Below, piece by piece: positions 1 to 32,000 of a stretch of DNA of 32,000 nucleotides. Position 1 is the stretch's first letter. Each line of letters starts with the position of its first letter. Under the pieces are notes generated by a model. That model worked only from the letters and a program-made list of their open reading frames with translations. It was not told the origin of the DNA and ran no database searches. The stretch is from assembly GCA_963528875.1 (NCBI GenBank), contig CAURWT010000002.1, positions 1 to 32,000 on the forward strand. The letters run 5' to 3'. The stretch is from an uncultured Candidatus Saccharimonas sp. GTDB taxonomy: Bacteria > Patescibacteriota > Saccharimonadia > Saccharimonadales > Saccharimonadaceae. The position numbers and the translations under genes are program-made.

Positions 1-55
1 GACTCCGGAACCAGCGCCAACGCCAACTCCGACTCCGGAACCAGCGCCAACGCCA
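1..55 (+). repeat. 30-bp tandem repeat encoding the Pro/Thr-rich stalk of the LPXTG protein
   Basis: gactccggaaccagcgccaacgcca occurs at 1-25 and again at 31-55 (identical). Locally much more GC-rich than the rest of the window. Confidence 0.85.
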
Positions 56-172
56 GATCAACAATCAACCAAGCAGTTACCAGAAACTGGTGAAAAAGAT
101 TCAACCTCTGCAGTCTTAGCAGGGCTGCTAGCAGCTGGTTTAGCATGGTTCACGCTTCGCAAGAAACAATAA
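2..172 (+). CDS. LPXTG-anchored surface protein, C-terminal fragment (5' end outside window)
   Basis: Frame 2 reads TPEPAPTPTPTPEPAPTPDQQSTKQ-LPETG-EKDSTSAVLAGLLAAGLAWFTL-RKKQ-stop (TAA 170-172). Pro/Thr linker, LPETG motif, hydrophobic helix and basic tail make a classical sortase sorting signal. Confidence 0.9.
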   Translation, partial: TPEPAPTPTPTPEPAPTPDQQSTKQLPETGEKDSTSAVLAGLLAAGLAWFTLRKKQ

Positions 173-202
173 ATAAACTCACAGTCTATCAACTAAAATA
201 AG

Positions 203-225
203 CCCCCTCATTTGAGGGGTTTTTA
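203..225 (+). terminator. Rho-independent terminator after the LPXTG gene
   Basis: cccctc (204-209) / gagggg (214-219) stem, 4-nt loop, followed by ttttt. Confidence 0.8.
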
Positions 226-304
226 AATTATTGTAATATTTATATATGTAGGGTTAAATTTAGCATTTATTAAAATAGCTTAGCTTTATTTTTTGTGTAT
301 TTTA

Positions 305-313
305 TGGTATACT
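305..313 (+). promoter_or_regulatory. Extended -10 promoter (TGgTATACT) of the hydrolase-trpS operon
   Basis: tggtatact at 305-313; only 7 nt separate the -10 hexamer from ATG 321, implying a leaderless transcript. Confidence 0.55.
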
Positions 314-320
314 ATTTTTA

Positions 321-2169: not shown

Positions 2170-3337
2170 TTCTGGTGATATTTTAAAAATTTTGCGAAAG
2201 TTTCAAATTGCAGGCGAAGAAAATGTTCCACGAAATGTTGAAGAGCTAAAAAAGATTACTGCTGATGAATTTTCAGAAATTTTCACTTTTAAATTTAACA
2301 AACATAAGTTTTTTATCGTGGTTGATGGAATGGCCGAAGATGATGAATTTTATATTCAAGATCTTCTTCGAAAGCATTTTGGTGATATTGAAGGTGAATT
2401 AATTAAGAATCCGCTCGATTTAATGATGAGTTTTGCTTTACCGTTTGAAGGCAAAGACATTTATCTCTTTCGAAATATTGCTTCAAAAACAAGGCTTGAT
2501 GTTTATTTGGCTGAAAATTACCCAGAATTCTCGCGGGCAACGATTCAAAAATATATTAAAAATGGCTTCGTAAAAGTGAATGGAAGAATTGCAAAAAAAC
2601 CAAAAGATGCAATTGAAAAAGGCGATAAAATTGAGTTTGAAATTCCAGAAAAAACTGCTGAAAAAATCAACTTTCCAATACTTTTCGAAGATGAAAATGT
2701 TATAGTGATAAATAAGCCTCGTGGAATTTTAACGCATAGCAAAGGTGCTTTAAATGATGAATTTACTGTTGCGGATTTTTTTGAAGGTCGTGACGCAAAA
2801 TTTGGTAAAGGGACGAATCGTGTTGGGATCGTTCATAGGCTTGACCGTGAAACTTCTGGTGTAATAATTGGCGCAAAAAATAATGAAGCTGCTAAAAAGC
2901 TGCAAAAGCAATTTTCAGAACGGACTGCGAAAAAAACCTATGTGGCAATTGTTAAAGGTGTTTTGAATCCAAAAAAAGCCTTAATTGATTTACCTATCGC
3001 GAGAAATGGCTCAGCTCCGAGCACTTTCATGATTCATGCAAAAGGAAAGCCGGCCCAAACTAAATATGAAGTTCTTAAGGAAAATGAAAATTTTTCGTTA
3101 GTAAAACTTATGCCAAAAACTGGTCGAACACATCAATTGCGTGTTCATTTAAGCTATCTAAACCATCCAATTTTAGGCGATAGAGTTTATGATAAAAATA
3201 TTTCGAAATCTGAAAGTGAAGATAGGATGTTTTTACATGCACAAAGTTTAGAGATTACAATTCCGCCCGAAAAAGGTGAGAAAGAATCGCAAAGAATGAT
3301 TTTCGAAGCAGAAATTCCTGAAAATTTTGAGTTGTAA
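2156..3337 (+). CDS. rluD: RluA/RluD-family 23S rRNA pseudouridine synthase with ~115-aa N-terminal extension
   Basis: S4-like segment RLDVYLAENYPEFSRATIQKYIKNGFVKVNGR and catalytic HRLDRETSGV motif. Start placed at ATG 2156 (GGAG at 2146-2149) rather than ATG 2135. Confidence 0.85.
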   Translation: MAKFNSGDILKILRKFQIAGEENVPRNVEELKKITADEFSEIFTFKFNKHKFFIVVDGMAEDDEFYIQDLLRKHFGDIEGELIKNPLDLMMSFALPFEGKDIYLFRNIASKTRLDVYLAENYPEFSRATIQKYIKNGFVKVNGRIAKKPKDAIEKGDKIEFEIPEKTAEKINFPILFEDENVIVINKPRGILTHSKGALNDEFTVADFFEGRDAKFGKGTNRVGIVHRLDRETSGVIIGAKNNEAAKKLQKQFSERTAKKTYVAIVKGVLNPKKALIDLPIARNGSAPSTFMIHAKGKPAQTKYEVLKENENFSLVKLMPKTGRTHQLRVHLSYLNHPILGDRVYDKNISKSESEDRMFLHAQSLEITIPPEKGEKESQRMIFEAEIPENFEL

Positions 3338-8157: not shown

Positions 8158-9915
8158 ATGAGACTACTAAAAAACTTCAAACAATCTTGGGATTTTTTCT
8201 ATAAAAATAAATATGGACTTTTGATTGGTGCTTCAGTTTTGCATTTTGCGATGTCGGTGATTGGGGTGAATTTACTTTTTTGGGTTTTTAAACTAATTTT
8301 ATTGTTTTCGAACCAAGAAAATATAACCAAAGATAATTTTTATTTGATTTTTTCAAATCCGTTGAGCTTGTTTTTATGTGTAATTTATATTTTGTTAGTT
8401 GCATTTTTAACCTTTGCGGAGTTTTTTATTCTAATCAATTTCATCAATTCCAGAAGAGAAGGCTCAGCTTTTTCGATAAAAACTACTTTAGCAAAATCTT
8501 TCATGAAATTAAAAGGTTTAATAGGTTTTCAAGTCTTCTTTTTTATAATTTATTTTATTTCGATGGTGCCTCTTGAAAATCTTGGGCTTTCGAGCACAAT
8601 TACTGAACGACTTCGAATTCCTGCATTTATTACGGGTGAAATTTCTAAAACACTAACAGGAACTTTGCTGTATTTTATTTTAATTTTCACGATTTTTTAT
8701 ATAAATTATCGCTTAATTTTTACTTTACCACGCACAATTTTAAAAGATGAGCCGCTTTCGAAAAGTATTAAAGAAAGCTGGAAGGCCACTAAAAAGAAGA
8801 TGCCACAAATTTTAATTCCAATTGGCATTTTCGAAATTATCTTTATGTTTGCAGGATTGCTGCTTATGCTTATTGTTGCTGGGATTTTGGGAATTTTTAA
8901 ACCTTTTATGGGATTTTTACTTTCGAAGACAATTCTTCAAACAATGTTTGATGTGGTGTTTTTTGCTTTTTCGGTTTTTACGAAAATTTCAATTGTAATT
9001 ATTTTGCTAGATAACATTGAACCTCAAAAATCGAAAACTATTGAAAGCAAAAAAGAAAAAAGAAAACGATCAAGTATTCTTATGCTTTTGATGATTTTAT
9101 TTTTGGTTGGCTCAACAGCTATTAACGGAATCCAGATTTATTACAGTAAGATTGATACAAAAATTTTTAAAATTGCGCACCGTGGTGATGTTCGCGGTGG
9201 GGTTGAAAATTCGCTTGAGGCGCTTGAATCGGCCAAGAAAAAAGGCGCAGATTATGCCGAAATGGACATTCAGCTAACGCGAGATAATCATTTTGTGGTT
9301 GTTCATGACTACAATTTGCGTCGATTAACAGGTCGAGATGCACGCGTTCGAGATTTGAATTTGAATGAAATTAGAAAATTAACTATTTCTGAAAATGGTT
9401 TCGAAAGTAGAATTCCGACTTTTGAGGAATATGTAAAACAAGCAGAAAAATTGAAAATTAAGCTTTTGGTTGAATTAAAGCCTAGTGGTGATGAACCAGA
9501 AAATTTTGCTGAAATATTCGTGAATAAATTTCGAAAACTTGGCGTGGAGCAAAAATTTAAAACGATGTCGCTTGATTTGAATTTAATGCGAAAAATTGAA
9601 AAAATTGCACCAGAAATTGAAACTGGTTTTGTGATTCCTTTGCAATTTGGGGATTTTGATGATTCTGAAATTGATTTTTATGTAATTGAAGATTTCTCGT
9701 ATCGGCGACATTTGGCTTTAAAAGCTCATAAAAAGCACCGAAAAATTTTTGTTTGGACATTAAATACTAGAAGTGAAATTTCAAAATATCTACAGGAGCC
9801 AATTGATGGAATAATTTCTGATGAGCTTGAAATGATTAACGAAATTGAGAAAGAAGACCGTTCAAAAGAATCAATTTTTAAAACTTTTATACGAATCTTA
9901 AAGCTTAAAGTATAA
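8158..9915 (+). CDS. multi-pass membrane protein with C-terminal glycerophosphodiester phosphodiesterase (GDPD) domain
   Basis: About 330 aa of hydrophobic helices, then IAHRGDVRGGVENSLEALESAKKKGADYAEMDIQLTRDNHFVVVHD (GDPD HR...EN...E.D signature). ATG 8158 is preferred over TTG 8143, which abuts the -10 box. Confidence 0.85.
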   Translation: MRLLKNFKQSWDFFYKNKYGLLIGASVLHFAMSVIGVNLLFWVFKLILLFSNQENITKDNFYLIFSNPLSLFLCVIYILLVAFLTFAEFFILINFINSRREGSAFSIKTTLAKSFMKLKGLIGFQVFFFIIYFISMVPLENLGLSSTITERLRIPAFITGEISKTLTGTLLYFILIFTIFYINYRLIFTLPRTILKDEPLSKSIKESWKATKKKMPQILIPIGIFEIIFMFAGLLLMLIVAGILGIFKPFMGFLLSKTILQTMFDVVFFAFSVFTKISIVIILLDNIEPQKSKTIESKKEKRKRSSILMLLMILFLVGSTAINGIQIYYSKIDTKIFKIAHRGDVRGGVENSLEALESAKKKGADYAEMDIQLTRDNHFVVVHDYNLRRLTGRDARVRDLNLNEIRKLTISENGFESRIPTFEEYVKQAEKLKIKLLVELKPSGDEPENFAEIFVNKFRKLGVEQKFKTMSLDLNLMRKIEKIAPEIETGFVIPLQFGDFDDSEIDFYVIEDFSYRRHLALKAHKKHRKIFVWTLNTRSEISKYLQEPIDGIISDELEMINEIEKEDRSKESIFKTFIRILKLKV

Positions 9916-9998
9916 CTATTATTTTATTATTTAAACCAATATAAATTTTATGAAAAGCTTATTTTGAAATATATTTTAAACAAAAAATCTAAAAAAGC

Positions 9999-10027
9999 TT
10001 GAAAAATAAGAATAATTATGATAAAAT
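9999..10027 (+). promoter_or_regulatory. sigma70-type promoter of the rplF-rplO block
   Basis: TTGAAA (9999-10004), 17 nt, TAAAAT (10022-10027), with TG at 10019-10020. Followed by a ~105-nt untranslated leader. Confidence 0.6.
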
Positions 10028-10138
10028 TACAAGGTTAATATTAAATGCGAGTGAAATTTGGGAGATTTTGCGCCTCATTTCGAAAGAGATGACCAGCACG
10101 AAGCAAACAAACACTCTTTAAATGAAAGGAAAAGTTCA

Positions 10139-10675
10139 ATGAGTCGAATCGGAAAACTACCTATTGAGGTTCCGGCTGGTGTGACAATCACGATTGACGA
10201 GAACGAGATTTCAGTTAAAGGCGCTAAAGGCGAACTAACTGTGCCTCATTTGTCAGATGTAACTGTCGAACTTGACGGCACAACTTTGAAGGTTATTCGA
10301 AAAAATGACGAACGAGTAGCGCGAGCGCAACACGGCTTGCAACGAGCTCTTTTGAATAACGCTGTAGTCGGCGTCACAAAAGGCTTCGAAAAGAAATTAG
10401 AAGTTAACGGAGTTGGTTTCCGTGTACAAACTAACAATCCGCAAGAGCTTGAAATGCAACTTGGATTCTCACACCCTGTAATCTATAAAGCAAAAGAAGG
10501 AATCGCTCTTTCTAACGATAAAATGGTTATTACGGTTGCTGGAATTGACAAACAAGCTGTTGGTCAAGCTGCGGCTGAAATCCGCGCATTGAAGAAACCT
10601 GAACCATATAAAGGTAAAGGTATCAAATATGTTGATGAAGTTATCTTGCGAAAAGCAGGAAAGGCAGGTAAATAA
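10139..10675 (+). CDS. rplF: 50S ribosomal protein L6
   Basis: MSRIGKLPIEVPAGVTITIDENEISVKGAKGEL is a canonical L6 N-terminus. aaagga RBS 8 nt upstream. Confidence 0.97.
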   Translation: MSRIGKLPIEVPAGVTITIDENEISVKGAKGELTVPHLSDVTVELDGTTLKVIRKNDERVARAQHGLQRALLNNAVVGVTKGFEKKLEVNGVGFRVQTNNPQELEMQLGFSHPVIYKAKEGIALSNDKMVITVAGIDKQAVGQAAAEIRALKKPEPYKGKGIKYVDEVILRKAGKAGK

Positions 10676-11031
10676 TGTCTAAAGCATTAACACTTAAGAA
10701 GCAAAACTTAGCTTTGCGAAAAGGTCGTGTTCGAGCAAAAATTTCTGGAACTGCTGAACGCCCACGATTAACTGTAACTATTAGTAATTTGCATGTTTCA
10801 GCTCAAATTATTGACGATGTTGCACAAAAAACTCTTGTTTCAGCAACAACTGTTGGTTCAAAAGTTAAAGGAACAAAAACTGAACTTGCTGCTAAAATTG
10901 GTGCAGAAATCGCTAAAAAAGCTAAAAAAGCTAAAATTAATACAGTAGTATTTGACCGAAATGGTCGCCAATATGCAGGTCGTTTGCACGCTTTGGCAGA
11001 TGCTGCTCGTAAGGAAGGATTGGAGTTCTAA
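10675..11031 (+). CDS. rplR: 50S ribosomal protein L18
   Basis: 118 aa. RPRLTVTISNLHVSAQIIDD ... VVFDRNGRQYAGRLHALADAARKEGLEF. TAATG overlap with rplF. Confidence 0.97.
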   Translation: MSKALTLKKQNLALRKGRVRAKISGTAERPRLTVTISNLHVSAQIIDDVAQKTLVSATTVGSKVKGTKTELAAKIGAEIAKKAKKAKINTVVFDRNGRQYAGRLHALADAARKEGLEF

Positions 11032-11033
11032 AT

Positions 11034-11618
11034 ATGGCTGAAGCTCAAAAAACTCAGGCTCCACGCCGAAATAACGACCGAAACAATGGTCGAAATGGTC
11101 GAAAAAATGACCGCCGAAATAATAATCGACGCCAAGAACGCGAAGAAAAACAATTCGAAGAATTAGTGATTAACATTGACCGCGTTTCCCGTGTTGTTAA
11201 AGGTGGACGACGCTTCCGCTTTAAAGCTCTTGTTGTTGTGGGTGACCGCAAAAACAAAGTTGGTGTTGGTGTAGCTAAAGGTCAAGATGTGACTGCAGCT
11301 ATCGCTAAAGCAACAAATGTTGCAAAGAAAAACATGATTGAAATCGCGCTTGAGAGCGACACAATTCCGCATGAAGCTGAGAAAAAAGTAACTGGCGCTC
11401 ACGTTCTTTTGAAGCCTGCAGCTCCTGGTACTGGTATTATCGCTGGTGGTGTTGTTCGACAAATTATTGGTGTAACAGGAATTCGAAATATGCTTTCGAA
11501 ATCACTTGGTTCAACAAATAAAGTTAATATTGCTTACGCAACTATAGATGCTTTGAAGAGCCTTGTTCCTAAAGAACAGTGGTTAAATGCACCAAAAGCT
11601 AAAAAGGAGACTAAGTAA
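11034..11618 (+). CDS. rpsE: 30S ribosomal protein S5 with Arg/Asn-rich N-terminal extension
   Basis: Core LVINIDRVSRVVKGGRRFRFKALVVVGD is typical S5. The first ~45 aa are low complexity (RRNNDRNNGRNGRKNDRRNNNRRQ). Confidence 0.96.
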   Translation: MAEAQKTQAPRRNNDRNNGRNGRKNDRRNNNRRQEREEKQFEELVINIDRVSRVVKGGRRFRFKALVVVGDRKNKVGVGVAKGQDVTAAIAKATNVAKKNMIEIALESDTIPHEAEKKVTGAHVLLKPAAPGTGIIAGGVVRQIIGVTGIRNMLSKSLGSTNKVNIAYATIDALKSLVPKEQWLNAPKAKKETK

Positions 11619-12082
11619 TGAAATACAATGAACTCCAAGTTTCTGCAAATAAAGATAAAATTCGTGTTGGTCGCGGTATTTCAGCCGGTCGTGGTAAAAC
11701 TGCTGGTCGTGGTACTAAAGGTCAAGGAGCTCGAACAGGAAAGAAACTTCGTGCAACTTTCCAAGGTGGTCAAAATCCACTTGTTCAGGCAACTCCAAAA
11801 GCTCGTGGATTCAAGTCTTTACGAAAACCAGCTCAAGTTGTATATCTTGACCACTTGAACGATTTAGCTGGTGAAGTTGATAACTTCCGACTTTTTGAAG
11901 AAGGCTATATTTCAACACCTTTCCATAAAGTTAAGGTTATCTCACGAGGTGAATTGAACGAAAAAGTTACTTTAAAAGTTCAAGCTGCTTCGAAATCTGC
12001 CATTGAAGCTATCGAAAAGGCTGGCGGAAAATTCGAAAAAGTTGCAACACCTTTGAAGAAATCTGCAAAAGAAGAAAAATAA
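11618..12082 (+). CDS. rplO: 50S ribosomal protein L15
   Basis: GRGISAGRGKTAGRGTKGQGARTG signature. Starts by TAATG overlap directly on the rpsE stop, so there is no L30 gene between S5 and L15. Confidence 0.96.
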   Translation: MKYNELQVSANKDKIRVGRGISAGRGKTAGRGTKGQGARTGKKLRATFQGGQNPLVQATPKARGFKSLRKPAQVVYLDHLNDLAGEVDNFRLFEEGYISTPFHKVKVISRGELNEKVTLKVQAASKSAIEAIEKAGGKFEKVATPLKKSAKEEK

Positions 12083-14366: not shown

Positions 14367-14408
14367 CAAGAGCTGTTCGAAAAAGAATAGCTCTTGACTT
14401 TTATTTTA
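14367..14408 (+). terminator. Rho-independent terminator after the ABC-2 permease
   Basis: caagagct (14367-14374) / agctcttg (14389-14396), 14-nt loop, then acttttatttt. Confidence 0.75.
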
Positions 14409-14422
14409 AAAAGTTGTATAAT
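14394..14422 (+). promoter_or_regulatory. Near-consensus sigma70 promoter of the 108-aa orphan gene
   Basis: TTGACT (14394-14399), 17 nt, TATAAT (14417-14422). The -35 overlaps the 3' arm of the preceding terminator. Confidence 0.6.
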
Positions 14423-14440
14423 TTAAAAGACTTTCGAATC

Positions 14441-14465
14441 AAAAAAATTTTTTTTTGGGGGGGGG
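14441..14465 (+). repeat. Compound homopolymer block A7-T9-G9 in the 5' UTR of the orphan gene
   Basis: aaaaaaa (14441-14447), ttttttttt (14448-14456), ggggggggg (14457-14465). Ends 9 nt before ATG 14475. It is the only G run longer than 5 that I saw in the window. Confidence 0.9.
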
Positions 14466-14474: not shown

Positions 14475-14801
14475 ATGAGATTTAGCAAGGATGCTTTAAG
14501 AAAGATATTTGAAGAGTCTTTCGATGATGAAGTTGATAATATCCACAACGGAGGGCATACAGTATCTTTTTATGGTGAAGAATATTCAATGGAATATAAC
14601 TTTCTACGGGGAGATATAACTTTTAGTGGAATAGATGAGAGCAGAATTGGGACTATTTTTATAGTTGAGTCTAATATCTCCTCTTACGAAGTCGATCCGT
14701 CAAGCCCTTTCGGCTATTATGTTGGGCTTTTTGAGGTTAATCTTAGAAGGCATATAGAGTTAAGCCAAAAGAAAACTCGTCGTAGATTTATCACAAAATA
14801 A
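14475..14801 (+). CDS. hypothetical protein, 108 aa, acidic N-terminal part and basic tail
   Basis: Stand-alone unit with its own promoter, a G-rich putative SD and its own terminator. No recognisable motif. Codon usage differs from neighbours (AGA/AGG and ATA frequent, no CGA). Confidence 0.6.
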   Translation: MRFSKDALRKIFEESFDDEVDNIHNGGHTVSFYGEEYSMEYNFLRGDITFSGIDESRIGTIFIVESNISSYEVDPSSPFGYYVGLFEVNLRRHIELSQKKTRRRFITK

Positions 14802-14812
14802 TTTCTCATTTC

Positions 14813-16801: not shown

Positions 16802-17416
16802 ATGAAAACACTTCTCGGTACCAAAATTGGTATGACCCAAATCATCGGTGAAGACGGCGTTGTTACACCAATTACGCTCGTTCAAGCCGGCCCTGTAACT
16901 GTGACTCAGGTTAAAACCGTTGAAACAGACGGCTACAACGCAGTTCAAGTGGCATTTGGTGAGGGTAAGAACCTGAGCAAGGCCGTGGCTGGACATGTAA
17001 AACCAGCAGAGGCAACTCCGAAGCATCTTCGTGAGTTCCGCGTTGACGAAATTCCTGCGGATATAAAAGTTGGCGCTAAAATTAATGTTGAAGCTTTCGA
17101 GCTTGGAGACATTGTTGATGTAACTGGAACAAGCAAAGGTAAAGGTTTTGCTGGAACAGTTAAGCGACACAACTTTAACACAAGCAAGAGTTCGCACGGT
17201 GGAAACGGAAACGTGCGTCGTGTTGGGTCAATCGGCTCAATGTATCCACAAAAAGTCTTCAAAGGTAAAAGAATGCCTGGACGAATGGGTCACGACAAAG
17301 TTACTGTTAAAAATCTAACAGTTGCTTACATCGATGCAGAAAATAACTTAATTGGGCTAAAAGGTGCTGTACCAGGACCAAAGAAGGGTCTTATCAGCAT
17401 TGGAGGTAAAGCATAA
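16802..17416 (+). CDS. rplC: 50S ribosomal protein L3
   Basis: MKTLLGTKIGMTQIIGEDGVVTPITLV is a canonical L3 N-terminus. GGGAG RBS upstream of ATG 16802. The 58 upstream codons of the ORF track cover the promoter and leader. Confidence 0.96.
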   Translation: MKTLLGTKIGMTQIIGEDGVVTPITLVQAGPVTVTQVKTVETDGYNAVQVAFGEGKNLSKAVAGHVKPAEATPKHLREFRVDEIPADIKVGAKINVEAFELGDIVDVTGTSKGKGFAGTVKRHNFNTSKSSHGGNGNVRRVGSIGSMYPQKVFKGKRMPGRMGHDKVTVKNLTVAYIDAENNLIGLKGAVPGPKKGLISIGGKA

Positions 17417-18003
17417 TGGCTGAAAAAACAACTCTTCCAAAAAGCGTTTTTGCAGTTGAAGTTCGAAATCATGAACTATTAAAGCTTGCCTATGACGCTT
17501 ATCTTGCTAACAACCGCTTGGCAAGTGCTACAACAAAACAACGCGGTGAAGTTCGTGGTGGTGGTAAAAAACCATGGCGACAAAAAGGAACTGGTCGCGC
17601 ACGATTTGGATCAATTCGAAACCCAATCTGGCGAGGCGGTGGTATTGTTTTTGGACCACGCGGTAACGAAAACTATACTAAAAAGATTTCGAAAACTTCA
17701 AAACGAGTTGCTCTTCGACAAGCTTTGACAGTTCAAGCTGAAAAAGTTCTTGTTGCAGAAATTAAAACAACTGGTAAAACTGCTGAAGTTGCAAAATTCT
17801 TAAAAGAGAATAATTTGGATCGACGAGTTCTTATCGTTGCTGAAAAAACAGACGAACTTATCCGTGCAACCAATAATATCAGTGAAGCTCTACTTGTTTC
17901 GCCAATGTATCTAAACGTATTTGACATTTTGAATGCAGATCACATTGTTATTGTGCCAAAAGCAATCGAAACAATCGAAAACTGGTTAGGAGGAGAAAAA
18001 TAA
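17416..18003 (+). CDS. rplD: 50S ribosomal protein L4
   Basis: RGGGKKPWRQKGTGRARFGSIRNPIWRGGGIVFGP signature; TAATG overlap. Confidence 0.97.
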   Translation: MAEKTTLPKSVFAVEVRNHELLKLAYDAYLANNRLASATTKQRGEVRGGGKKPWRQKGTGRARFGSIRNPIWRGGGIVFGPRGNENYTKKISKTSKRVALRQALTVQAEKVLVAEIKTTGKTAEVAKFLKENNLDRRVLIVAEKTDELIRATNNISEALLVSPMYLNVFDILNADHIVIVPKAIETIENWLGGEK

Positions 18004-18338
18004 TGGCGATCAAACCTATTACTCCACGAGCGACTGAGAAAGCTTATGCTCTTTCTACAACAAAAAATGTTTACGTATTTAATGTACCGCTAACTTTGAA
18101 TAAGAATCAAATCAAAGAAGCGATTGAAAAAGAGTTTGAAGTAACTGTAACTGGCGTTCGAACTGTTGTTCAAGCTGGTAAAACTAAACGAATCAACAAA
18201 TCTCGAAATCCAAAACGATATGTTGCAGGTTTAACAACTCAAAAAGATATTAAGAAAGCTTATGTAACCGTAAAAGAAGGTGATAAGATTGCAATCTTCG
18301 AAGGTACTGAAGCTGAAACTGCTGAGGAGAAGAAGTAA
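18003..18338 (+). CDS. rplW: 50S ribosomal protein L23
   Basis: 111 aa. Position between L4 and L2; ATEKAY...VYVFNV...IKKAYVTVKEGDKI pattern; AGGAGG RBS. Confidence 0.93.
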   Translation: MAIKPITPRATEKAYALSTTKNVYVFNVPLTLNKNQIKEAIEKEFEVTVTGVRTVVQAGKTKRINKSRNPKRYVAGLTTQKDIKKAYVTVKEGDKIAIFEGTEAETAEEKK

Positions 18339-19183
18339 TGGCTATTAAAAAATACAACCCTACGACTCCTGCTCGACGCGGTATGACGACTGAAGACTAT
18401 AGTGAAATTACAACTCGAAAACCGCTAAAAAGTCTTCTTAAAGCGAAAAAGCAAAACGCTGGACGCAATAACTCTGGTCGAATTACGGTTCGACACCGAG
18501 GTGGTGGTGTTAAACGACATTACCGAATCTTAACTCACAAATTGCCAACAGGTTTGACTTTGACTGTTCGAGAAATTGAATACGATCCAAACCGAAGTGC
18601 GCGAATTGCTCGAGTTCAAGATCAAGATGGTAAATTCTACTATGTATTGGCTGATACATCAATGTTCCAAGGTAAAGTTTTCCAAACTGGTAAAAAAGAT
18701 ATTGAAATTGAAGCTTCAAACCGAATGCCACTTTCAGAAATTCCTGTTGGTTCATTGATTTACGCAATCGAAATCACACCAGGAAAAGGTGCGCAAATGG
18801 TTCGTTCAGCCGGAGCTAAAGCTCAGTTGATGGCGAAAGAAGGTGACTACGCTCAGGTAAAATTACCTTCAGGTGAAGTTCGAAAATTCCGATTGGAAGC
18901 AGAAGCAACTCTTGGAACAGTTGGAAATATTCAGCATCAAAACGTTAAACTTGGTTCTGCTGGTCGAAATCGCCGTAAAGGTATTCGCCCAACAGTTCGT
19001 GGTGTTGTTATGAATGCTGTAGATCACCCACATGGTGGTGGTGACGGCGGACGACACGGAATCGGTCGCTCAACTCCACGCACACCTTGGGGTCAACCAA
19101 CTCTCGGCTACAAAACTCGCCGACGTAAGAGTACTAATAAATTTATCGTGAAGAGTCGTCACGAAGCTAAGAGGAGAAAATAA
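18338..19183 (+). CDS. rplB: 50S ribosomal protein L2
   Basis: GRNNSGRITVRHRGGGVKRHYR and MNAVDHPHGGGDGG motifs. Confidence 0.98.
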   Translation: MAIKKYNPTTPARRGMTTEDYSEITTRKPLKSLLKAKKQNAGRNNSGRITVRHRGGGVKRHYRILTHKLPTGLTLTVREIEYDPNRSARIARVQDQDGKFYYVLADTSMFQGKVFQTGKKDIEIEASNRMPLSEIPVGSLIYAIEITPGKGAQMVRSAGAKAQLMAKEGDYAQVKLPSGEVRKFRLEAEATLGTVGNIQHQNVKLGSAGRNRRKGIRPTVRGVVMNAVDHPHGGGDGGRHGIGRSTPRTPWGQPTLGYKTRRRKSTNKFIVKSRHEAKRRK

Positions 19184-19450
19184 ATGAGTCGTTCATTGAA
19201 AAAAGGTCCGTTTATCGACTTCAAGCTTGCTAAAAAAGTAGCGGCTCTTGGAGCAGATGATCGAACAGTGATTAAAACTTGGGCTCGCTCAAGCACAATT
19301 ACACCAGAAATGGTTGGTCGAACTATCGCTGTTCACAATGGTCGTTTACATATTCCTGTATATATTTCAGAGAATATGGTCGGACACAAACTTGGTGAAT
19401 TTGCGCCAACACGTAAATTCCGAAAACACGGCGGAAAGGATAAGAAATAA
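19184..19450 (+). CDS. rpsS: 30S ribosomal protein S19
   Basis: [12 protein letters not shown] ... [17 protein letters not shown]; AGGAG RBS. Confidence 0.98.
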
Positions 19451-19866
19451 TGGCTAATGTAACAACTCGTGCCTATATCAAAGGTATTGGTCAGACTCCA
19501 CGAAAAGTTTCAATCGTGGCAAGTCTTGTTCGTGGTCGAACTGTTGCTGATGCATTAGTAATTCTTGACCACACTCCACGCCGAAGTGCCTTGGCTGTTA
19601 AAAAAGCTATTCAATCAGCTGCAGCTAATGCAAAAAACAATGATAATGCTGATCCAAAAACTCTTGTAATCACAACTTTGTCGGTTACTGCTGGATCGCG
19701 ATTGAAGCGATTTAAACCTCATATGCGAGGAATGGCGCTTCCTTTCCAAAAGAAAACTTCAAACATTTTGGTCGAAGTTTCTGGCGTTGTTAAAGAGAAG
19801 AAAGCTCCAGCTAAAAAAGCTGAAGTTAAGAAAACTACTGCGAAAGCAGAGAAAGAGAGCAAATAA
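19450..19866 (+). CDS. rplV: 50S ribosomal protein L22 with Lys/Ala-rich C-terminal tail
   Basis: RAYIKGIGQTPRKVSIVASLVRGRTVADALVIL, typical L22. Tail is KEKKAPAKKAEVKKTTAKAEKESK. Confidence 0.96.
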   Translation: MANVTTRAYIKGIGQTPRKVSIVASLVRGRTVADALVILDHTPRRSALAVKKAIQSAAANAKNNDNADPKTLVITTLSVTAGSRLKRFKPHMRGMALPFQKKTSNILVEVSGVVKEKKAPAKKAEVKKTTAKAEKESK

Positions 19867-20501
19867 TGGGTCAAAAAGTTAATCCAATTAGCTTCCGTTT
19901 GCAAGCTCATAAAAACTGGGATTCACGATGGTTTGCTCAGAAAAAAGATTTTGCAAAATTCTTGATTGAAGATGACAAAATTCGAAAAACTATCGAAAAA
20001 CGATTCGAAAGTCGACCAACAATTGATCGAATCGAAATTGAACGAACAGAAAACCTTATCACTGTTTCAATTCATACAGCAAAAGCTGGTGTTGTAATTG
20101 GTCGCGGTGGCGCTGGCGTTCAAGAACTTAAAACTCAACTTGAAAAAATGGTGAGTTTACCGGTTCGAATTAATATTGAAGAAGTTCGCCGACCAGAGCT
20201 TTCGGCCAAATTGGTTGCTGAAAATATTGCTAGACAATTGGAACGACGAATCAACTTCCGCCGAGCCGTTAAAATGGCGTTACAAAATACAATGCAAGCA
20301 GGCGCAAAAGGTGTTCGTATTGAGGTTGCTGGACGGTTGAATGGAGCTGAAATGAGCCGCCGTGAGAAATTCTCTGAAGGATCTGTTCCTCTTCATACAA
20401 TTCGCGCAGATATCAACTATCACGGAGCACGTTCGCAAACTCCTGCTGGTATTATCGGCGTAAAAGTTTGGATTAATAAAGGTGAAAGGAACGATAAGTA
20501 A
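19866..20501 (+). CDS. rpsC: 30S ribosomal protein S3
   Basis: [12 protein letters not shown] ... KH-domain [11 protein letters not shown] ... [11 protein letters not shown]. Confidence 0.98.
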
Positions 20502-20920
20502 TGGCTATTTTATTACCAAAGAAAACCGCTCACCGAAAAGTTCGAAAAGGTAAAAATCCAGGCCGAGCAACTCGTGGAAACACTGTTGCCTTCGGTGACT
20601 ATGGATTGGTTAGCCTTGAGAACGAGCGAATCAACTCGCGACAAATCGAATCAGCCCGAACAGCTATGACTCGTTATATTAAGCGTGGAGGTCAGGTTTG
20701 GATTCGAATATTCCCGCACACACCAGTTACTCGAAAACCGCAAGATGTGAAAATGGGTAGCGGTAAGGGAAACCCAGAATTCTTTGTGGCTAAAGTTAAA
20801 GCTGGAACAGTCATGTTCGAAATGAACGGTGTTTCAGAAGAAGTTGCACGCGAAGCTATGCGACTTGCTGGCCACAAACTTCCAGTAAAAGTTAAATTCG
20901 TAAAGAAAGGTGAAATCTAA
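20501..20920 (+). CDS. rplP: 50S ribosomal protein L16
   Basis: RKVRKGK ... [21 protein letters not shown] ... [22 protein letters not shown]. Confidence 0.97.
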
Positions 20921-20921
20921 T

Positions 20922-21191
20922 ATGGCGACTACATTGACAGGTGTTGTTTCGAGCGCTAAAGCCGACAAAACTATCACCGTAACAGTTCATAGCCGTGAAA
21001 CACACCCAATTTACGGCAAGCAATATACTGTAACTCGAAAATATACTGCTCATGATGAAAACAATGAAGCTGGTGAAGGTGACAAAGTTATCATCAAAGA
21101 AGTTCGACCAATTTCGAAAACTAAGAGTTTTGCTTTAGTTGAAATTGTTGAGAAAGCTCGAGGTTCAGTAGAATTGAAAGAGGAGGCATAA
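20922..21191 (+). CDS. rpsQ: 30S ribosomal protein S17
   Basis: [18 protein letters not shown] ... [34 protein letters not shown] 20922 lies 1 nt after the rplP stop (GTG 20910 is the alternative). There is no room for rpmC between L16 and S17. Confidence 0.95.
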
Positions 21192-21559
21192 TGATTCAGC
21201 AAGAAAGCCGACTTAAAGTAACAGATAACAGTGGTGCAAAAGAGATCCTTTGTATTCGTGTACTAGGTGGTTCAAAACGCCGATATGCACGAGTTGGTGA
21301 TATCATTGTCGCTACCGTTAAAGATGCTAACCCAACTGGTAACATTAAGAAAAAATCAGTTGTGAAAGCCGTTGTTGTGCGAACTCGCGACCAAATTCGT
21401 CGAAAAGATGGTTCAACTATTTGTTTCGATGATAATGCGGCCGTAATTATCGCCGACGACAAAACTCCAAAAGCGACTCGCGTATTTGGTCCAGTACCAC
21501 GCGAACTTCGTGACTTAGGATACAACAAAATTATCAGCTTAGCTCCGGAGGTGCTCTAA
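21191..21559 (+). CDS. rplN: 50S ribosomal protein L14
   Basis: [27 protein letters not shown], canonical L14. Confidence 0.98.
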
Positions 21560-21560
21560 T

Positions 21561-21824
21561 ATGGCGTTAAATGGAATTGTTAAGGGTGATAATGTTGTAA
21601 TTATCAGCGGAAAAGATAAAGGTGTTACTGGTGAAGTTGTAAAAGTTTTACCAAAGAAAAATGCTGTTTTGGTTGAAGGCGTTGGCAAAAAACATCGCCA
21701 CATCAAACCAAATCAATTCAATCCGCGCGGTGGAGTAAAAGACATTCATGTTCCAACTCCAGTTCATAAAGTTAAAAAAGTAGAAGCTAAAAGCGCTAAA
21801 TCAAGCAAAAAAGGAGATAAATAA
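21561..21824 (+). CDS. rplX: 50S ribosomal protein L24
   Basis: KOW motif GDNVVIISGKDKGVTGEVVKV; GGAGG RBS. Confidence 0.95.
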   Translation: MALNGIVKGDNVVIISGKDKGVTGEVVKVLPKKNAVLVEGVGKKHRHIKPNQFNPRGGVKDIHVPTPVHKVKKVEAKSAKSSKKGDK

Positions 21825-22402
21825 TGGCTAAAACTACTGTTTATGTTCCTCGCTTGAAAACTCTTTACAAAGATAAAATTGCTAAAGAACTCCAAAGCGA
21901 ACTAGAGCTAACAAATATCCACCAAGTTCCAAAGCTTGAAAAAATCGTTGTTAGCGTAGGAACAGGTAAGAAAAAGGAAGACAAACGTTTTCAAGAAGTT
22001 GTAAAAAATACAATTACAAAAATCACTGGTCAAGTTCCAGTAGAACGTTTACCTAAAAAATCAATTGCGACCTTTAAAATTCGTGGTGGAATGGGTGCCC
22101 CAATTGGCCATAGTGTAACTTTGCGTGGTGATCGAATGTATGAATTTCTTGATCGCCTAGTAAATGTAGCTTTGCCTCGCGTGCGTGACTTCCATGGTGT
22201 TGGAGCAAAAGGTTTCGATAAAGGTGGAAATTACAATTTGGGAATTTTAGAACAATCTGTTTTCCCAGAGCTAACTTTTGAAGAAACTCAAATTCTTCAC
22301 GGTTTGCAGGTAACTTTCGTAATCAAAAACGAAGGTGAAGCTCACAGTCGAGCATTGCTTGAAAAATTCGGAATTCCATTTGAAAAGAAAGGAAAAGCGT
22401 AA
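21824..22402 (+). CDS. rplE: 50S ribosomal protein L5
   Basis: [16 protein letters not shown] ... [16 protein letters not shown] ... [19 protein letters not shown]. Confidence 0.97.
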
Positions 22403-22671
22403 TGGCTAAAAAATCAATGATTGCAAAAGACTTGAAACGCAAAAAAATGATTGAAAAATATGCTGCAAAACGCGCCGAATTGAAAGCTGCTGGCGACCAA
22501 GAAGGTCTTCAAAAGCTTCCACGCAACTCAAGTCCTACACGACTTAAAAACCGCGACAATTTTGATGGTCGACCACGCGGTTATATGCGACGATTTGGTA
22601 TGAGCCGAATCACTTTCCGCATTAAAGCCTCAAAGGGTGAAATCCCAGGCGTAACAAAAAGTAGTTGGTAG
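22402..22671 (+). CDS. rpsN: 30S ribosomal protein S14 (long, Cys-free form)
   Basis: [20 protein letters not shown] ... [20 protein letters not shown]. 89 aa, no CxxC zinc motif. Confidence 0.95.
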
Positions 22672-22686
22672 AAGGAAGGAGAGACT

Positions 22687-23088
22687 ATGTCATTACAATC
22701 AACTGACCCAATCGCCGACCTTCTAACTCGCATTCGAAATGCGGCAATGGTTGGCAAGAACGAAATTCGCGTTCCTTCAAGCAAATTGAAAGAAGTTGTA
22801 GCGAAAGAGCTTGCAAAAGCTAACTATATTGAATCTGTTGAAGTTGAATCAGCAAAACCTCGCGATATCTTGGTGGTTAAAATCACAAAAGAAGGTGAAG
22901 CTGCTCGCTTTAATGAATTAACTCGAATGAGTAAACCAGGACGCCGAATGTATGTTGGCGTAGAAGAAATCCCACGCGTTAAAAGTGGTCGTGGAATGGT
23001 TCTACTTTCAACATCAAAAGGTGTTATGAATGGTTTCGAAGCCAAGAAACAACGACTCGGCGGTGAACTATTGCTAAAAGTTTGGTAA
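22687..23088 (+). CDS. rpsH: 30S ribosomal protein S8
   Basis: TDPIADLLTRIRNA signature; AAGGAG RBS. Confidence 0.97.
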   Translation: MSLQSTDPIADLLTRIRNAAMVGKNEIRVPSSKLKEVVAKELAKANYIESVEVESAKPRDILVVKITKEGEAARFNELTRMSKPGRRMYVGVEEIPRVKSGRGMVLLSTSKGVMNGFEAKKQRLGGELLLKVW

Positions 23089-23106
23089 TCTGAACTTTAG
23101 AAAAAG

Positions 23107-29114: not shown

Positions 29115-29190
29115 TGGCACGGGCAGAGAGACTCGAACTCCCGACACCAGGTTTTGGAGACCTGTGCTCTACCAACTGAGCTATGCCCGT
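29115..29190 (-). tRNA. trnW: tRNA-Trp (anticodon CCA), 3' CCA encoded
   Basis: - strand: ACGGGCA TA GCTC AGTTGGTA GAGC A CAGGT CTCCAAA ACCTG GTGTC GGGAG TTCGAGT CTCTC TGCCCGT G CCA. Full cloverleaf with 7/4/5/5-bp stems and anticodon loop CT-CCA-AA. Confidence 0.95.
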
Positions 29191-29207: not shown

Positions 29208-29255
29208 TAAAAATTTCGAAAAGTGAAGAGTTTTTGCAAAATTTTCTGCTAAATA

Positions 29256-29284: not shown

Positions 29285-29389
29285 AATAATAAGTTAAAAG
29301 CTTCAACTGTAAAAATTGAGCTTTTGGCTCGTATTTTAAAAGTTGGCTTTTTGCTGGAAATTCTATTTTATATAAAGGAGGCCATAAAA

Positions 29390-29767
29390 ATGGCTAAAGT
29401 AATTTCTTGGGTTCAAACCCAAAATCAAGAAAATCTCGCTGGGATCGGTAAGTATCTTGAAAGAAAAGTGACGCCAAAGACACCTCTGTCTAAAGTTATT
29501 GATAAGCTTGAAAAAGCTTATCAGAAAAATAACATCGAAGAGTTAGTCTTTTGGCTAGCTTACGCTAAGTTTAATGAGTATTCTGTAGAGCGAGGACGCG
29601 AATTCTTCAAGAAGATTGAAGAATTGTGGGCTTCAAAAAGACACCCTGAGCTCTCAAATAAATTTCATTTCTTAAATTCCCGCTTTTCAGAGAATTATTC
29701 AGGCAGAAAAGATAGCGCTCAGATGTATAATCATACTGCGCTATTTGCGGAGCTATCTCTAGCATAG
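29390..29767 (+). CDS. hypothetical protein, 125 aa
   Basis: Start at MAKVISWVQ (ATG 29390), preceded by AGGAGG 7 nt upstream. Has its own promoter and terminator. No recognisable motif. Confidence 0.6.
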   Translation: MAKVISWVQTQNQENLAGIGKYLERKVTPKTPLSKVIDKLEKAYQKNNIEELVFWLAYAKFNEYSVERGREFFKKIEELWASKRHPELSNKFHFLNSRFSENYSGRKDSAQMYNHTALFAELSLA

Positions 29768-29781
29768 TCAACAATAAAATA

Positions 29782-29811
29782 AGCCCGAAACTAATCGGGC
29801 TTTTTCTTTTT
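29782..29811. terminator. Bidirectional terminator between the orphan gene and the convergent ABC exporter
   Basis: agcccga (29782-29788) / tcgggct (29795-29801), 6-nt loop, tttttctttt on the + strand and a T-rich flank on the - strand. Confidence 0.8.
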
Positions 29812-29817
29812 CAATTT

Positions 29818-31602
29818 TTATTCAGCAAATTGTGAATCGTAAAGTTTCGCATAAGCGCCATTTTTCGCGAGCAATTCTTTATGAGATCCTTGCTCAACAA
29901 TATTTCCATGTTCCAGCACTAGAATCAAATCGGCATTTCGAATTGTTGAAAGGCGGTGTGCAATCACAAAGCTCGTACGGCCGTGAGTTAAATTATCCAT
30001 TGCAGATTGAATGGCTGCTTCCGTTCGCGTATCAACAGAACTGGTTGCTTCATCAAGAATCAGCATTGGAGAATCTGCCAAAATAGCCCGCGCAATTGTG
30101 AGAAGCTGTTTTTCACCAGCTGAGATATTATCAATATCTTCAGAAATTACCGTATCATAACCTTTTGGTAAGGTTCGAATAAAGTGGTCGGCGTGAGCGG
30201 CTTTTGCGGCTTCAATAATTTCTTCACGAGTGGCATTAGGTTTTCCATAAGCCAAGTTTTCAGCAATTGTACCATTAAAAAGCCATGTATCTTGAAGAAC
30301 CATTCCAAAAAGGGAGCGAACATCATGCCGCGACATTTTTGAAGTATCAATTCCGTCGATTGTGATTTTTCCGCTATCAATATCATAGAATCGCATCAAA
30401 AGATTCACAAGCGTAGTTTTTCCAGCTCCAGTTGGGCCAACAATTGCCACATTTGAACGCGGCGCAATTTTTGTACTGAAATTCGTAATAATTGGCTTAT
30501 TTTTTGAATACGAAAAATTAACTTTTGAAAACTCTACAGATCCTTTAATTTCTTTTGGCAAAGTTTTTGAAATTTCAACAAAAGTCTCTTCTTCAGCATC
30601 AAGAAAGCCAAAAATTCGCTCACAAGCTGCAACCGTTGTCTGAACACTTGTCATTGAGTTTGCGATATTCGAAATTGGTTGCGTAAATCGGCTCATATAT
30701 TGCATAAAAGCAGTAATCTCACCAATTGTCATCTGACCATTTAATGCACGAACGCCACCAATCACCACAACGGTTAAAGTTGAAAGATTATTGATGAAAC
30801 CCATAATTGGGTAGAGAAGTCCACCAAAAAACTGAGATTTCCAAGATGAAATATACATTTTGTTATTGATTTTTTCGAAATTTTCAACCGATGATTTTTC
30901 GCCATTATAAACCTTAATAACTTCGTGTGAAGAAAGCATCTCATCGGTATGAGCAGTTAAACTCGATGTAAATTTTTGTAAATCCGTAAAATAGACTTGA
31001 CTAAACTTCGAAATAATCATAATAATTCCAACCGAAATTATTCCAGTTGCAAGAGCAATTAGGCTCATTTGCCAGCTAATCGAAATCATCATAACAGTCA
31101 CACCAACAATTGTAATTATTGAATAAGAAAGCTGATTTAAGCTCTCGCTCAAACTGTTGCTGAGTGTCTCGATGTCGTTCGTAATAATTGAAACCGTATC
31201 ACCAGTTTTGTGCTTATCAAAATATGAAAGAGGTAGTCGCGCGATTTTTTTTGAAGCTTCGTCACGTAATTTAAAAACAATTTCTTGAACCATTTGACCC
31301 ATAATCCAGTTTTGCGCATAACCAAAAACTCCTGATCCAACATAGATAGCAATCAAAATAAAGCCAAGTTCGGTAATTTTCGAAAAATCAGGATTAAATC
31401 GAACTGCGCCAGATTGAATTTCAAAATTTTTAGTAATTAAATTAATCATCTCACCCACAATTTGTGGCCCAACAATCGCTGAAACCGAGCTCAAAATCAC
31501 CATAATCGCAAAAAATACAATCAGGAATTTAAACGGTGCAAAATATAGCAAGAGTCGCCAAATTGTTTTTAGCGAAAGTTTGTTTTTTTGATTTTTCGCC
31601 AT
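29818..31602 (-). CDS. ABC exporter, fused permease/ATPase subunit with consensus ATP site (MsbA/LmrD-like)
   Basis: 594 aa. Six N-terminal TM helices; Walker A GPTGAGKTT, signature ISAGEKQ, Walker B LILDEATSSVD, H-loop IAHRLST. Confidence 0.92.
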   Translation of the reverse strand: MAKNQKNKLSLKTIWRLLLYFAPFKFLIVFFAIMVILSSVSAIVGPQIVGEMINLITKNFEIQSGAVRFNPDFSKITELGFILIAIYVGSGVFGYAQNWIMGQMVQEIVFKLRDEASKKIARLPLSYFDKHKTGDTVSIITNDIETLSNSLSESLNQLSYSIITIVGVTVMMISISWQMSLIALATGIISVGIIMIISKFSQVYFTDLQKFTSSLTAHTDEMLSSHEVIKVYNGEKSSVENFEKINNKMYISSWKSQFFGGLLYPIMGFINNLSTLTVVVIGGVRALNGQMTIGEITAFMQYMSRFTQPISNIANSMTSVQTTVAACERIFGFLDAEEETFVEISKTLPKEIKGSVEFSKVNFSYSKNKPIITNFSTKIAPRSNVAIVGPTGAGKTTLVNLLMRFYDIDSGKITIDGIDTSKMSRHDVRSLFGMVLQDTWLFNGTIAENLAYGKPNATREEIIEAAKAAHADHFIRTLPKGYDTVISEDIDNISAGEKQLLTIARAILADSPMLILDEATSSVDTRTEAAIQSAMDNLTHGRTSFVIAHRLSTIRNADLILVLEHGNIVEQGSHKELLAKNGAYAKLYDSQFAE

Positions 31603-32000
31603 TATTTTTCTCCTTTCTTAGATTTTTTCGAAATTACCTTTTTTAAGCTTTTCTTGGCTATCTTTTTCGAAACCGAAACTGCTTTTTTAGTATTTTTTTG
31701 AGTTTTCGAAATAGTTTTTTGCTTTTCAAAATCCTTAATTTGCATTTCAATTTCTTCATCAGAAAGCTGCGAAGATGCTATTTCGCGGTAAATTTCATTA
31801 TTTTTAAGAAGTTCACCATGAATACCAATTCCAACAATCTTTCCACCGTCTAAAACAATAATTTTATCGGCTTGCATAATTGAAGTTACTCGTTGAGCGA
31901 CAATAAACTTGGTTTGCGATTTAGTTTTTATAGCAAGTTCGGCACGAAGCTTAGCGTCGGTTTTATAATCAAGCGCAGAAAAGCTATCATCGAAAATTAA
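31602..32000 (-). CDS. ABC exporter partner subunit, C-terminal fragment with degenerate ATP site and Lys-rich tail (5' end outside window)
   Basis: The frame is open to the window edge: LIFDDSFSALDYKTDAKLRAEL ... KFIVAQRVTSIMQADKIIVLDGGKIVG, followed by a ~55-aa Lys-rich tail. TAATG overlap with the downstream subunit. The ORF-track start at 31877 is an internal Met. Confidence 0.88.
   Translation of the reverse strand, partial: LIFDDSFSALDYKTDAKLRAELAIKTKSQTKFIVAQRVTSIMQADKIIVLDGGKIVGIGIHGELLKNNEIYREIASSQLSDEEIEMQIKDFEKQKTISKTQKNTKKAVSVSKKIAKKSLKKVISKKSKKGEK

Follow-up and report, generated by a model that had tools for sequence, protein, structure and literature searches.

TTCGAA as a candidate highly iterated palindrome in a low-GC clade of Saccharibacteria

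The stretch of DNA considered here (the window) comprises the first 32,000 bases of contig CAURWT010000002.1, from an assembly of an uncultured Candidatus Saccharimonas sp. (GCA_963528875.1). It carries several groups of ribosomal-protein genes, among them the rplC-rpsH operon on the plus strand (16627-23089), and a single tRNA gene, for tRNA-Trp (29115-29190, minus strand). Throughout the window (1-32000), both within genes and between them, lie copies of the palindrome TTCGAA, 105 in all and 16 of them in the rplC-rpsH operon. At the GC content of the window (36.0%), the mononucleotide expectation is 10.8 copies, and the density of 3.3 per kb thus corresponds to an observed/expected ratio (O/E) of 9.8. 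An earlier note, based on a manual scan, had put the count at about 104 and the over-representation at roughly 10-fold, and the exact count bears this out.

More demanding null models lower the excess and do not remove it. Shuffles of the window that preserve dinucleotides yield 25.8±4.2 copies (maximum 36), and Markov models of order 2 and order 3 predict 45.4 and 56.3 copies, respectively, the latter giving a Poisson P of ~4e-9 for the observed 105. Shuffling of synonymous codons inside the genes yields 42.8±5.0, with a maximum of 56 in 500 shuffles. The only null to come close to the observed number is the maximal-order (order-4) Markov model, which expects 97.7 copies. However, TTCGAA itself contributes 105 copies to the 140 TTCGA pentamers in the window and as many to the 148 TCGAA; because the 5-mers from which this model is built are mostly fragments of the motif, its prediction is circular and does not refute the excess. 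The earlier note had proposed a codon-preserving shuffle and higher-order Markov models as the comparisons that might undo its claim. The claim stands firmly against the shuffle. Among the Markov models it stands against orders 2 and 3, while order 4 reproduces the count in a formal sense only.

The excess belongs to this one word. TTCGAA ranks first by z-score among all hexamers of the window, and the second most frequent hexamer of the form NNCGNN has 19 copies. The palindromes that follow it by O/E, GCCGGC (4.7) and CGCGCG (3.7), are present in just 4-5 copies each, and the next with a substantial count is AAGCTT (36 copies, O/E 3.35). Other CpG palindromes flanked by A and T are depleted, with 2 copies of ATCGAT, 4 of AACGTT and 2 of TACGTA, and TCGA outside TTCGAA occurs 107 times when 105 are expected. 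Since, in addition, the TT and AA flanks of the motif are nearly invariant between strains (see below), it is the whole 6-bp palindrome that is read rather than the TCGA core alone. There is also a weak preference for one further base on each side. T precedes TTCGAA in 66% of cases, compared with 38% for other TTC, and A follows it in 71%, compared with 43% for other GAA; 43 of the 105 copies (41%) are the 8-mer TTTCGAAA. Among the first 26 copies the 8-mer accounts for 11, in agreement with the share of about 40% reported for them before. No consensus is seen past these two bases, the composition of positions -6 to -2 and +2 to +6 being near background.

Within coding DNA, the sites of the window fall in all three frames (26, 35 and 41) and in genes of both strands, as had been claimed. 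Each frame can be illustrated by a ribosomal protein in which the peptide is conserved in outgroups: TTC-GAA, encoding Phe-Glu, in L6 (10385-10390, plus strand); nTT-CGA-Ann, encoding Ile-Arg-Ile, in L16 (20703-20708, plus strand); and nnT-TCG-AAn, encoding Leu-Ser-Lys, in S5 (11495-11500, plus strand). Because the Phe-Glu dipeptide of L6 is itself conserved, the site at 10385 was made by codon choice. The non-coding share of the window alone is too small for judging, and non-coding DNA was therefore assessed after the window had been extended to 51.3 kb along its 374.8-kb ENA scaffold (SUKU23-1_SAMEA110373743 scaffold_8). The extended stretch holds 160 sites. Its 5.5 kb of non-coding DNA contain 15 of them, where 1.9 are expected (O/E 8, P ~2e-9), an O/E equal to that of the coding DNA; the proportional density in untranslated DNA asserted earlier is therefore upheld. 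The copies of the window are spaced at random, 299 bp apart on average, with a coefficient of variation of 0.90 (0.98±0.09 for random placement) and a largest gap of 1620 bp (1569 simulated), and neither regular spacing nor clustering was detected within 51 kb.

Four of the non-coding copies named by the earlier note are clearly non-coding. One (14376-14381) lies within a terminator-like hairpin (14367-14396), a second (14433-14438) between a promoter-like site (14394-14422) and an open reading frame (ORF) that begins at 14475, and a third (14839-14844) directly past another terminator-like hairpin (14813-14831). The fourth (29215-29220) adjoins the tRNA-Trp gene outside the T-arm and hence is not the ordinary tRNA GTTCGAATC. 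Two more probably lie in leaders, as had been suggested: the copy at 10079-10084 ahead of rplF (uL6), in an ORF extension with no counterpart in 66 outgroup proteins, and the copy at 16726-16731 ahead of rplC (uL3), in an N-terminal extension that does not align with the 66 outgroups, L3 being called elsewhere as a protein of 204 aa with a later start. The coordinates given before are correct to within one position, apart from a copy placed near 567, which really lies at 577. The T-arm GTTCGAATC was considered as a source of the non-coding copies and rejected, as the only tRNA gene has no site. A Chi-like hotspot, which is asymmetric and co-oriented with replication, does not describe the motif either, since a palindrome cannot be strand-skewed. 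A few other features of these regions may be recorded. A homopolymer block, A7-T9-G9 (14441-14465), stands just 5' of the ATG at 14475 and is possibly slippage-prone; the ORF that follows encodes 108 aa and has no family match. The tRNA-Trp gene (anticodon CCA) is overlapped by a publicly called 151-aa protein that is probably spurious. Positions 1-60 of the window form a tandem repeat with a unit of ~30 nt (GACTCCGGAACCAGCGCCAACGCCAAC...); in the ENA scaffold, an N gap takes the place of the first 35 bases.

Could the excess arise from the proteins that the DNA encodes? A preference for certain codons, codon pairs or peptides might produce it, and CGA and TCG codons are in fact unusually frequent: CGA makes up 37-41% of Arg codons here, compared with 11-25% in other members of the phylum with comparable GC content, and the share of TCG among Ser codons is 14-20%, compared with 8-13%. 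However, non-coding DNA is equally enriched, the sites occupy three frames and both strands, and the synonymous-codon shuffle recovers 42.8 of the 105 copies. In the 51.3-kb stretch, TTCGAA is carried by 49% of Phe-Glu slots, by 48% of slots for [FLIV]-Arg followed by a codon that begins with A, and by 37% of x-Ser-[Lys/Asn] slots, when even the skewed codon usage of the genome itself would lead one to expect 10-21%. In the ribosomal proteins the sites fall on residues that are also present in 66 outgroup Saccharibacteria; because these residues were conserved already, the sites there come mostly from synonymous choices, and a preference for peptides is not their source. The dependence runs the other way. 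TTCGAA drags codon usage along with it, as the earlier note had proposed for CGA and TCG, and, more weakly, peptide usage: the O/E of motif-compatible peptides is 1.11-1.43 in enriched lineages, compared with 0.94±0.11 across 45 loci that lack the enrichment, and the TTCGAA-compatible slots of RuvB number eight in enriched lineages and one in a non-enriched neighbour (species D, below). A dispersed repeat of the REP or MITE type was likewise rejected, since the flanks contain no extended conserved sequence and conservation ends at 8 bp. Codon preference, peptide preference and a repeat element can thus be ruled out as causes, the chance that any of them makes the excess being negligible, and the earlier view that the cause acts on the DNA and not through amino-acid preference is borne out by frames, strands, intergenic copies and codon shuffle alike.

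The enrichment is not peculiar to the window. The L2 protein of the window matches metagenome-assembled genomes of Saccharibacteria. The lineage is abundant in metagenomes of what look, from the record names, like human cohorts; in an assembly collection the S14 protein of the window turns up in 3,942 indexed blocks, mostly of such cohorts. Of 80 loci surrounding the gene for L2, none but relatives of the window show enrichment (O/E 9.1 in L001, 9.4 in L002 and 5.6 in L063), and some 75 other loci of Saccharibacteria and Clostridia have an O/E of ~1. The enriched loci fall into at least three lineages, namely species A, species B and that of L063. Species A comprises the window, L001, L002 and L082-L089, with an O/E of 8.4-14 among strains (9-10 in loci longer than 10 kb). 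Species B comprises L251-257, L259 and L260, with an O/E of 7-8; in non-ribosomal genes its proteins are 74-86% identical to those of the window, and the identity at 4-fold sites is merely 0.42-0.51. A further set, L267-269, which probably belongs to the lineage of L063, reaches 11-12. Because the excess recurs at the unlinked dnaA-dnaN-ruvCAB-recA-ftsH locus (O/E 9-12 in three lineages), it is genome-wide. The enrichment is therefore a property of certain low-GC Saccharibacteria genomes that span several species and not of one locus, and the comparison of sister genomes advised by the earlier note finds the density high in related lineages and near chance in the ~75 other loci and in species D. 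In NCBI, the RuvB homologues from related lineages bear the name 'Candidatus Nanogingivalis sp.'; this oral G6 group is described as the one of lowest GC within its phylum (PMC7427843), and the enriched clade has the lowest among the relatives sampled here.

Scans for three copies of TTTCGAAA within ~80 bp returned 39 matches in IMG/VR, mostly local clusters, and 120 in JGI/ENA metagenomes, mostly short and with a motif count that is inflated by selection on the pattern. One of the latter (L151, part of a 171-kb contig of 36% GC) looks like the enriched clade. Others appear to be of a different nature. L170, L205, L231, L248, L172, L154 and L155 have 46-53% GC, sparse ORFs and a local TTCGAA excess of 6-10 times, and are probably eukaryotic. 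Two huge-phage-like sequences, L115 1-11983 and L126 1-6983 (IMG/VR 3300044959_000237 and 3300020567_000331), hold TTCGAA at 18-24 times expectation in regions that are repetitive and nearly stop-free in six frames, with TCCGGA up to 41 times over-represented; in L115, the 24-bp unit AAAATGTTCCGGAACATATCGGGT forms an array of 2.8 kb (9178-11976). The complete huge phages LR756504 and LR756501, which are related to them, have no TTCGAA enrichment. The order of the ribosomal genes is unusual and variable (window 10058-12082 and 14475-23088; L081 1713-2027; L251 10788 onwards). S10 and the L6-L18-S5-L15 block are separated from the L3-S8 operon, a two-component system lies just 5' of L3, and in species B a block of hydrolase, TrpS and RluD directly follows S8.

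A neighbour of the enriched clade provides a natural contrast. L003 and L258, assembled independently from different samples, have one common gene arrangement and are taken as species D; L003 was considered as a chimeric assembly, and this was rejected because the arrangement in L258 is identical. Species D has no TTCGAA in the 7.4 kb upstream of its ribosomal-protein operon, where genes for RuvA, RuvB and a protein with a bPH domain lie together with a TIR/caspase island; downstream of the operon the density is 0.7 per kb. The operon itself (L258 4225-10688; L003 7455-13918) contains 11 sites, nine of them shared with the window. Against the rplC-rpsH operon of the window it is a mosaic, 82-100% identical, with 100% identity between the window and L258 over the 600 bp at 16927-17527 and 82-89% over 19327-21400. 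In contrast, the syntenic GDPD orthologues of the two species have 53% protein identity and a 4-fold-site identity of 0.30. The comparison indicates that species D is a different, non-enriched species with a recent import of the ribosomal-protein operon from the enriched clade, by inter-species recombination. The island directly upstream of the operon (L003 4402-6382; L258 1172-3152), which has no TTCGAA, is a trio of TIR, caspase-like (Peptidase_C14) and TIR genes and looks like a defence island.

Within the enriched clade, sites are kept. Between strains that are 95-97% identical, 58 of 62 sites are conserved (94%), where control hexamers matched for gene and frame predict 50.8 (82%; z = 2.5, P ~0.008). 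The central CpG of the motif diverges by 2.8%, compared with 7-9% for other CpGs, and in the TT and AA flanks a single position differs among 126 motif comparisons (~67 distinct sites). At larger distances the positions of sites still agree. In non-ribosomal orthologues of species A and B, 72 mutually compatible slots are occupied in both species in 23 cases, in A only in 16, in B only in 5 and in neither in 28, an odds ratio of 8 (p = 2e-4) at near-saturated synonymous divergence. Sites also appear anew. When three strains are compared, 32 sites are common to all, 7 are found in one strain and 1 in two, which points to more gains than losses among strains, and the gains were made through an indel as well as through A>G, G>T and C>T changes. 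Of the nine site differences that separate the window from L001, seven are CpG transitions that convert TTCGAA to or from TTTGAA or TTCAAA. The CpGs outside the motif, in the comparison of the window with L001 and L002 (8333-28616), diverge at their 7-9% against 3.6% overall, and CpG is not depleted (O/E 1.26).

An enrichment of DNA-level nature that is confined to one lineage, whose sites are maintained and gained in excess and travel with imported DNA, has led to the following model. TTCGAA, preferably as TTTCGAAA, would be an iterated palindrome like the highly iterated palindromes (HIPs) of cyanobacteria. A trans-acting factor of the lineage would read the complete 6-bp palindrome and weakly bias fixation throughout the genome, so that a substitution would tend to be fixed when it creates a site and to be lost when it destroys one. 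Such a bias would act on any resident DNA, filling ~40-50% of the slots that the proteins permit and non-coding DNA equally. From the counts of slot occupancy its size, as ln(odds ratio), may be estimated at ~1.3-1.7, which would be of the order of codon-usage selection or biased gene conversion. The agent is probably, by analogy, a TTCGAA-specific methyltransferase of BstBI/AsuII specificity, either orphan or no longer restricting, whose methylation would tilt mismatch repair, or the handling of DNA in natural transformation and recombination, toward the strand or allele that bears the site, as has been proposed for HIP1 and is reported for it in one preprint. A methyltransferase with biased repair or recombination is favoured because the anatomy of the motif is HIP-like, because TTCGAA occurs in nature as an N6-methyladenine (m6A) methylation motif, because Saccharibacteria are naturally competent through ComEC (PMC10633639), and because recombination is active in the ribosomal-protein operon. 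As a whole, the model of an HIP-like palindrome under fixation bias is adopted tentatively, with a little less than even confidence.

A number of results weigh against this model. A search of ~110 kb of non-redundant sequence from enriched lineages (~150 kb with near-duplicate strain copies), comprising the window, its two 10-kb extensions, related ribosomal-protein loci (~20 kb each) and RuvB loci, revealed no gene for a DNA methyltransferase or restriction enzyme with a palindromic target. All that it turned up was one Type ISP-like enzyme, in L063, together with coiled-coil proteins or proteins of no assigned function. In L063 3189-7973, between nrdD and the ribosomal-protein operon, a fragment of an N6_Mtase is followed by a 1358-aa protein with T5orf172, ResIII and Eco57I domains. 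It has only 3 TTCGAA in 4.1 kb, when the locus averages 1.7 per kb, and so looks recently acquired; the Type ISP-like class reads asymmetric sites. Furthermore, the targets of methyltransferases are normally not enriched, and the sites of active restriction-modification systems are usually avoided in the host genome (PMC4687349). The DnaA-box regions around dnaA have no cluster of TTCGAA, unlike GATC at the E. coli origin. Some of the agreement in slot occupancy between the two species may stem from intrinsic differences in how favourable the slots are. Finally, in the ribosomal-protein operon the conservation of sites against L063 is no higher than that of matched controls, and against L003 9 of 16 sites are retained, with 9.3 expected from such controls. 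The last result can be put to use: because the imported sites are kept no better than controls in species D, the factor would have to be trans-acting and belong to the recipient genome.

Other explanations give the excess a different origin. A function-free by-product of context-specific mutation or repair would require no reader of the palindrome: very-short-patch repair of T:G to C:G in TT(T/C)GAA, as by Vsr at CCWGG, might raise the motif, perhaps once this AT-shifted lineage had lost some other pathway of repair. The CpG transitions at seven of nine sites, the motif CpG that diverges 2.5-3 times less than other CpGs, the lowest GC among sampled relatives and the random spacing are all compatible with this. 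However, TTTGAA and TTCAAA, from which T:G repair would draw, are not depleted (100 observed, O/E 2.6 by base composition, compared with 1.3-1.4 in relatives, and by arithmetic ~1 after dinucleotide correction) and are well conserved themselves. Sites are gained by other routes as well, namely G>T, C>T at position 2 and an indel. Repair of T:G would leave the TT and AA flanks unprotected, yet these are the most conserved positions of the motif, and conservation of position persists across near-saturated synonymous divergence. The effect of Vsr in E. coli is, moreover, far below 10-fold. Simple repair of the very-short-patch type is thus unlikely as the cause, and the bare context-dependent mutation bias among the candidates of the earlier note has lost ground; a mutational or repair by-product of any kind is regarded as improbable. 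Selection of the sites for binding an abundant nucleoid-associated or chromosome-organising protein would account for conservation within and between species and for constraint on the full palindrome with its T and A extension, and T3-CG-A3 may plausibly be bendable; a chromosome-organising protein was the reading favoured for HIP1 by Xu et al. (2018), with periodicity at the 10-90 kb scale. Here, however, spacing within 51 kb is neither regular nor clustered, no candidate protein was identified in the enriched-lineage loci read, and the lack of sites in the sister species is left unexplained. Such a protein is considered a distinctly unlikely cause.

A larger share of belief, although still a small one, goes to transformation. 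In one version, TTCGAA is an uptake or self-recognition signal that has been built up by molecular drive without methylation, as are the uptake signal sequences (USS) of Pasteurellaceae and the DNA uptake sequences (DUS) of Neisseriaceae. The ComEC-based competence of the phylum fits this, and so do a density of ~3 per kb, the occurrence in all frames, random dispersal, conservation and the bending of peptides. The mosaic operon, exchanged between species whose GDPD proteins are 53% identical, means that homologous exchange is active, and in an actinobacterial host of ~70% GC the motif should, by arithmetic, be ~50-fold rarer. On the other hand, known uptake signals are asymmetric 9-12-mers, and a hexamer, expected by chance roughly every 3 kb in DNA of whatever source, discriminates poorly. 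Competence genes are found throughout the phylum and the enrichment in one clade, species D took in motif-rich DNA although it is not enriched, and no receptor candidate was identified in the enriched-lineage loci. A palindrome with a CpG core is, in addition, typical of dimeric or methyltransferase-type recognition. An uptake signal of this kind is therefore considered rather unlikely. Given about the same modest weight is a second version, by analogy with HIPs, in which the mark is a 'self' tag that depends on methylation: a methyltransferase of the lineage would mark TTCGAA, transformation, recombination or mismatch repair would favour marked DNA, and molecular drive would spread the motif. 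The AT-rich DNA of the epibiont could then be told from the high-GC DNA of its host.

The model of an HIP-like palindrome read by a lineage factor can be set beside systems already described. HIP1 is GCGATCGC, and alternate HIPs comprise GGCGCC (in Calothrix PCC 7103), rCCGGy, GCsGC, GGGATCCC and TCGATCGA; HIPs are enriched 10-fold or more, and the alternate ones occur sporadically at 500-2500 per Mb, each together with a methyltransferase of matching specificity, and a ratchet of methylation-directed repair has been proposed by Elhai to explain HIPs (PMC4390886). HIP1 sites are conserved beyond neutral expectation (PMC5861425), and methylated HIP1 is reported to boost natural transformation by up to >100-fold, possibly through uptake or processing together with a Chi-like effect (preprint, bioRxiv 10.1101/2024.09.10.611283). 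Like these, TTCGAA is a short, dispersed palindrome, enriched ~10-fold in all frames and in intergenic DNA, that is lineage-specific, absent from close relatives and conserved at its sites beyond controls. It differs in its host, which belongs to the Saccharibacteria and the candidate phyla radiation rather than the cyanobacteria, in being AT-rich with a CpG core and no GATC core, in its higher density (~3,100-3,300 per Mb), and in that no methyltransferase such as those linked to the alternate HIPs is present among the loci read. TTCGAA is therefore not HIP1 itself and is at most a member of a wider HIP phenomenon.

The likeness to USS and DUS lies in ~1-3 copies per kb in a competent lineage, in all frames and with distortion of peptides, in lineage-specific 'dialects', and in an accumulation that drive alone could explain; they differ as asymmetric 9-12-mers with a dedicated receptor (ComP in Neisseria; PMC3868556) from a 6-bp palindrome. 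With Vsr/Dcm at CCWGG in E. coli the motif shares a site frequency that may be raised by biased repair, its CpG being protected relative to other CpGs, but the T-containing derivatives of TTCGAA are undepleted, its flanks are conserved too, and the effect is much larger. The BstBI/AsuII restriction-modification systems recognise the identical 6-bp sequence, which is a known methylation motif; unlike the targets of an active Type II system, which are normally avoided in the host (PMC4687349), it is 10-fold enriched, with no restriction-modification gene in the loci read. Dam sites offer another comparison, as GATC in E. coli, which serves MutH and SeqA, also occurs about once per 300 bp and as the logic of a strand mark is used in Elhai's model of HIPs; TTCGAA differs in having no cluster in the origin region. 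GATC itself is not known to exceed chance in E. coli. No article mentioning both Saccharibacteria and TTCGAA was found in the library of papers searched.

The cause of highly iterated palindromes has been debated since HIP1 was described in the 1990s, and the well-studied cases are all cyanobacterial, with large genomes and deep divergences. Saccharibacteria are reported to have highly reduced genomes (705 kb in strain TM7x). An HIP-like signal that has arisen independently in a phylum of small genomes, in several species and next to a motif-free relative with which DNA is exchanged, should thus allow the cause to be found by comparing the presence and absence of genes. It should also be accessible through the frequencies of site-creating and site-destroying variants in the thousands of existing metagenomes with this clade. 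The density of TTCGAA is, furthermore, a sharp marker for genome binning and for imported DNA, as it revealed the recombinant ribosomal-protein operon of L003 and L258, and if the sites are methylated or required for transformation they would be relevant to the new genetic tools for Saccharibacteria. Should the self-tag hypothesis prove true, TTCGAA would be the first HIP-type system outside the cyanobacteria, and HIPs and uptake sequences would be joined in a single mechanism, within a very small genome that has a sister species free of the motif as its natural control.

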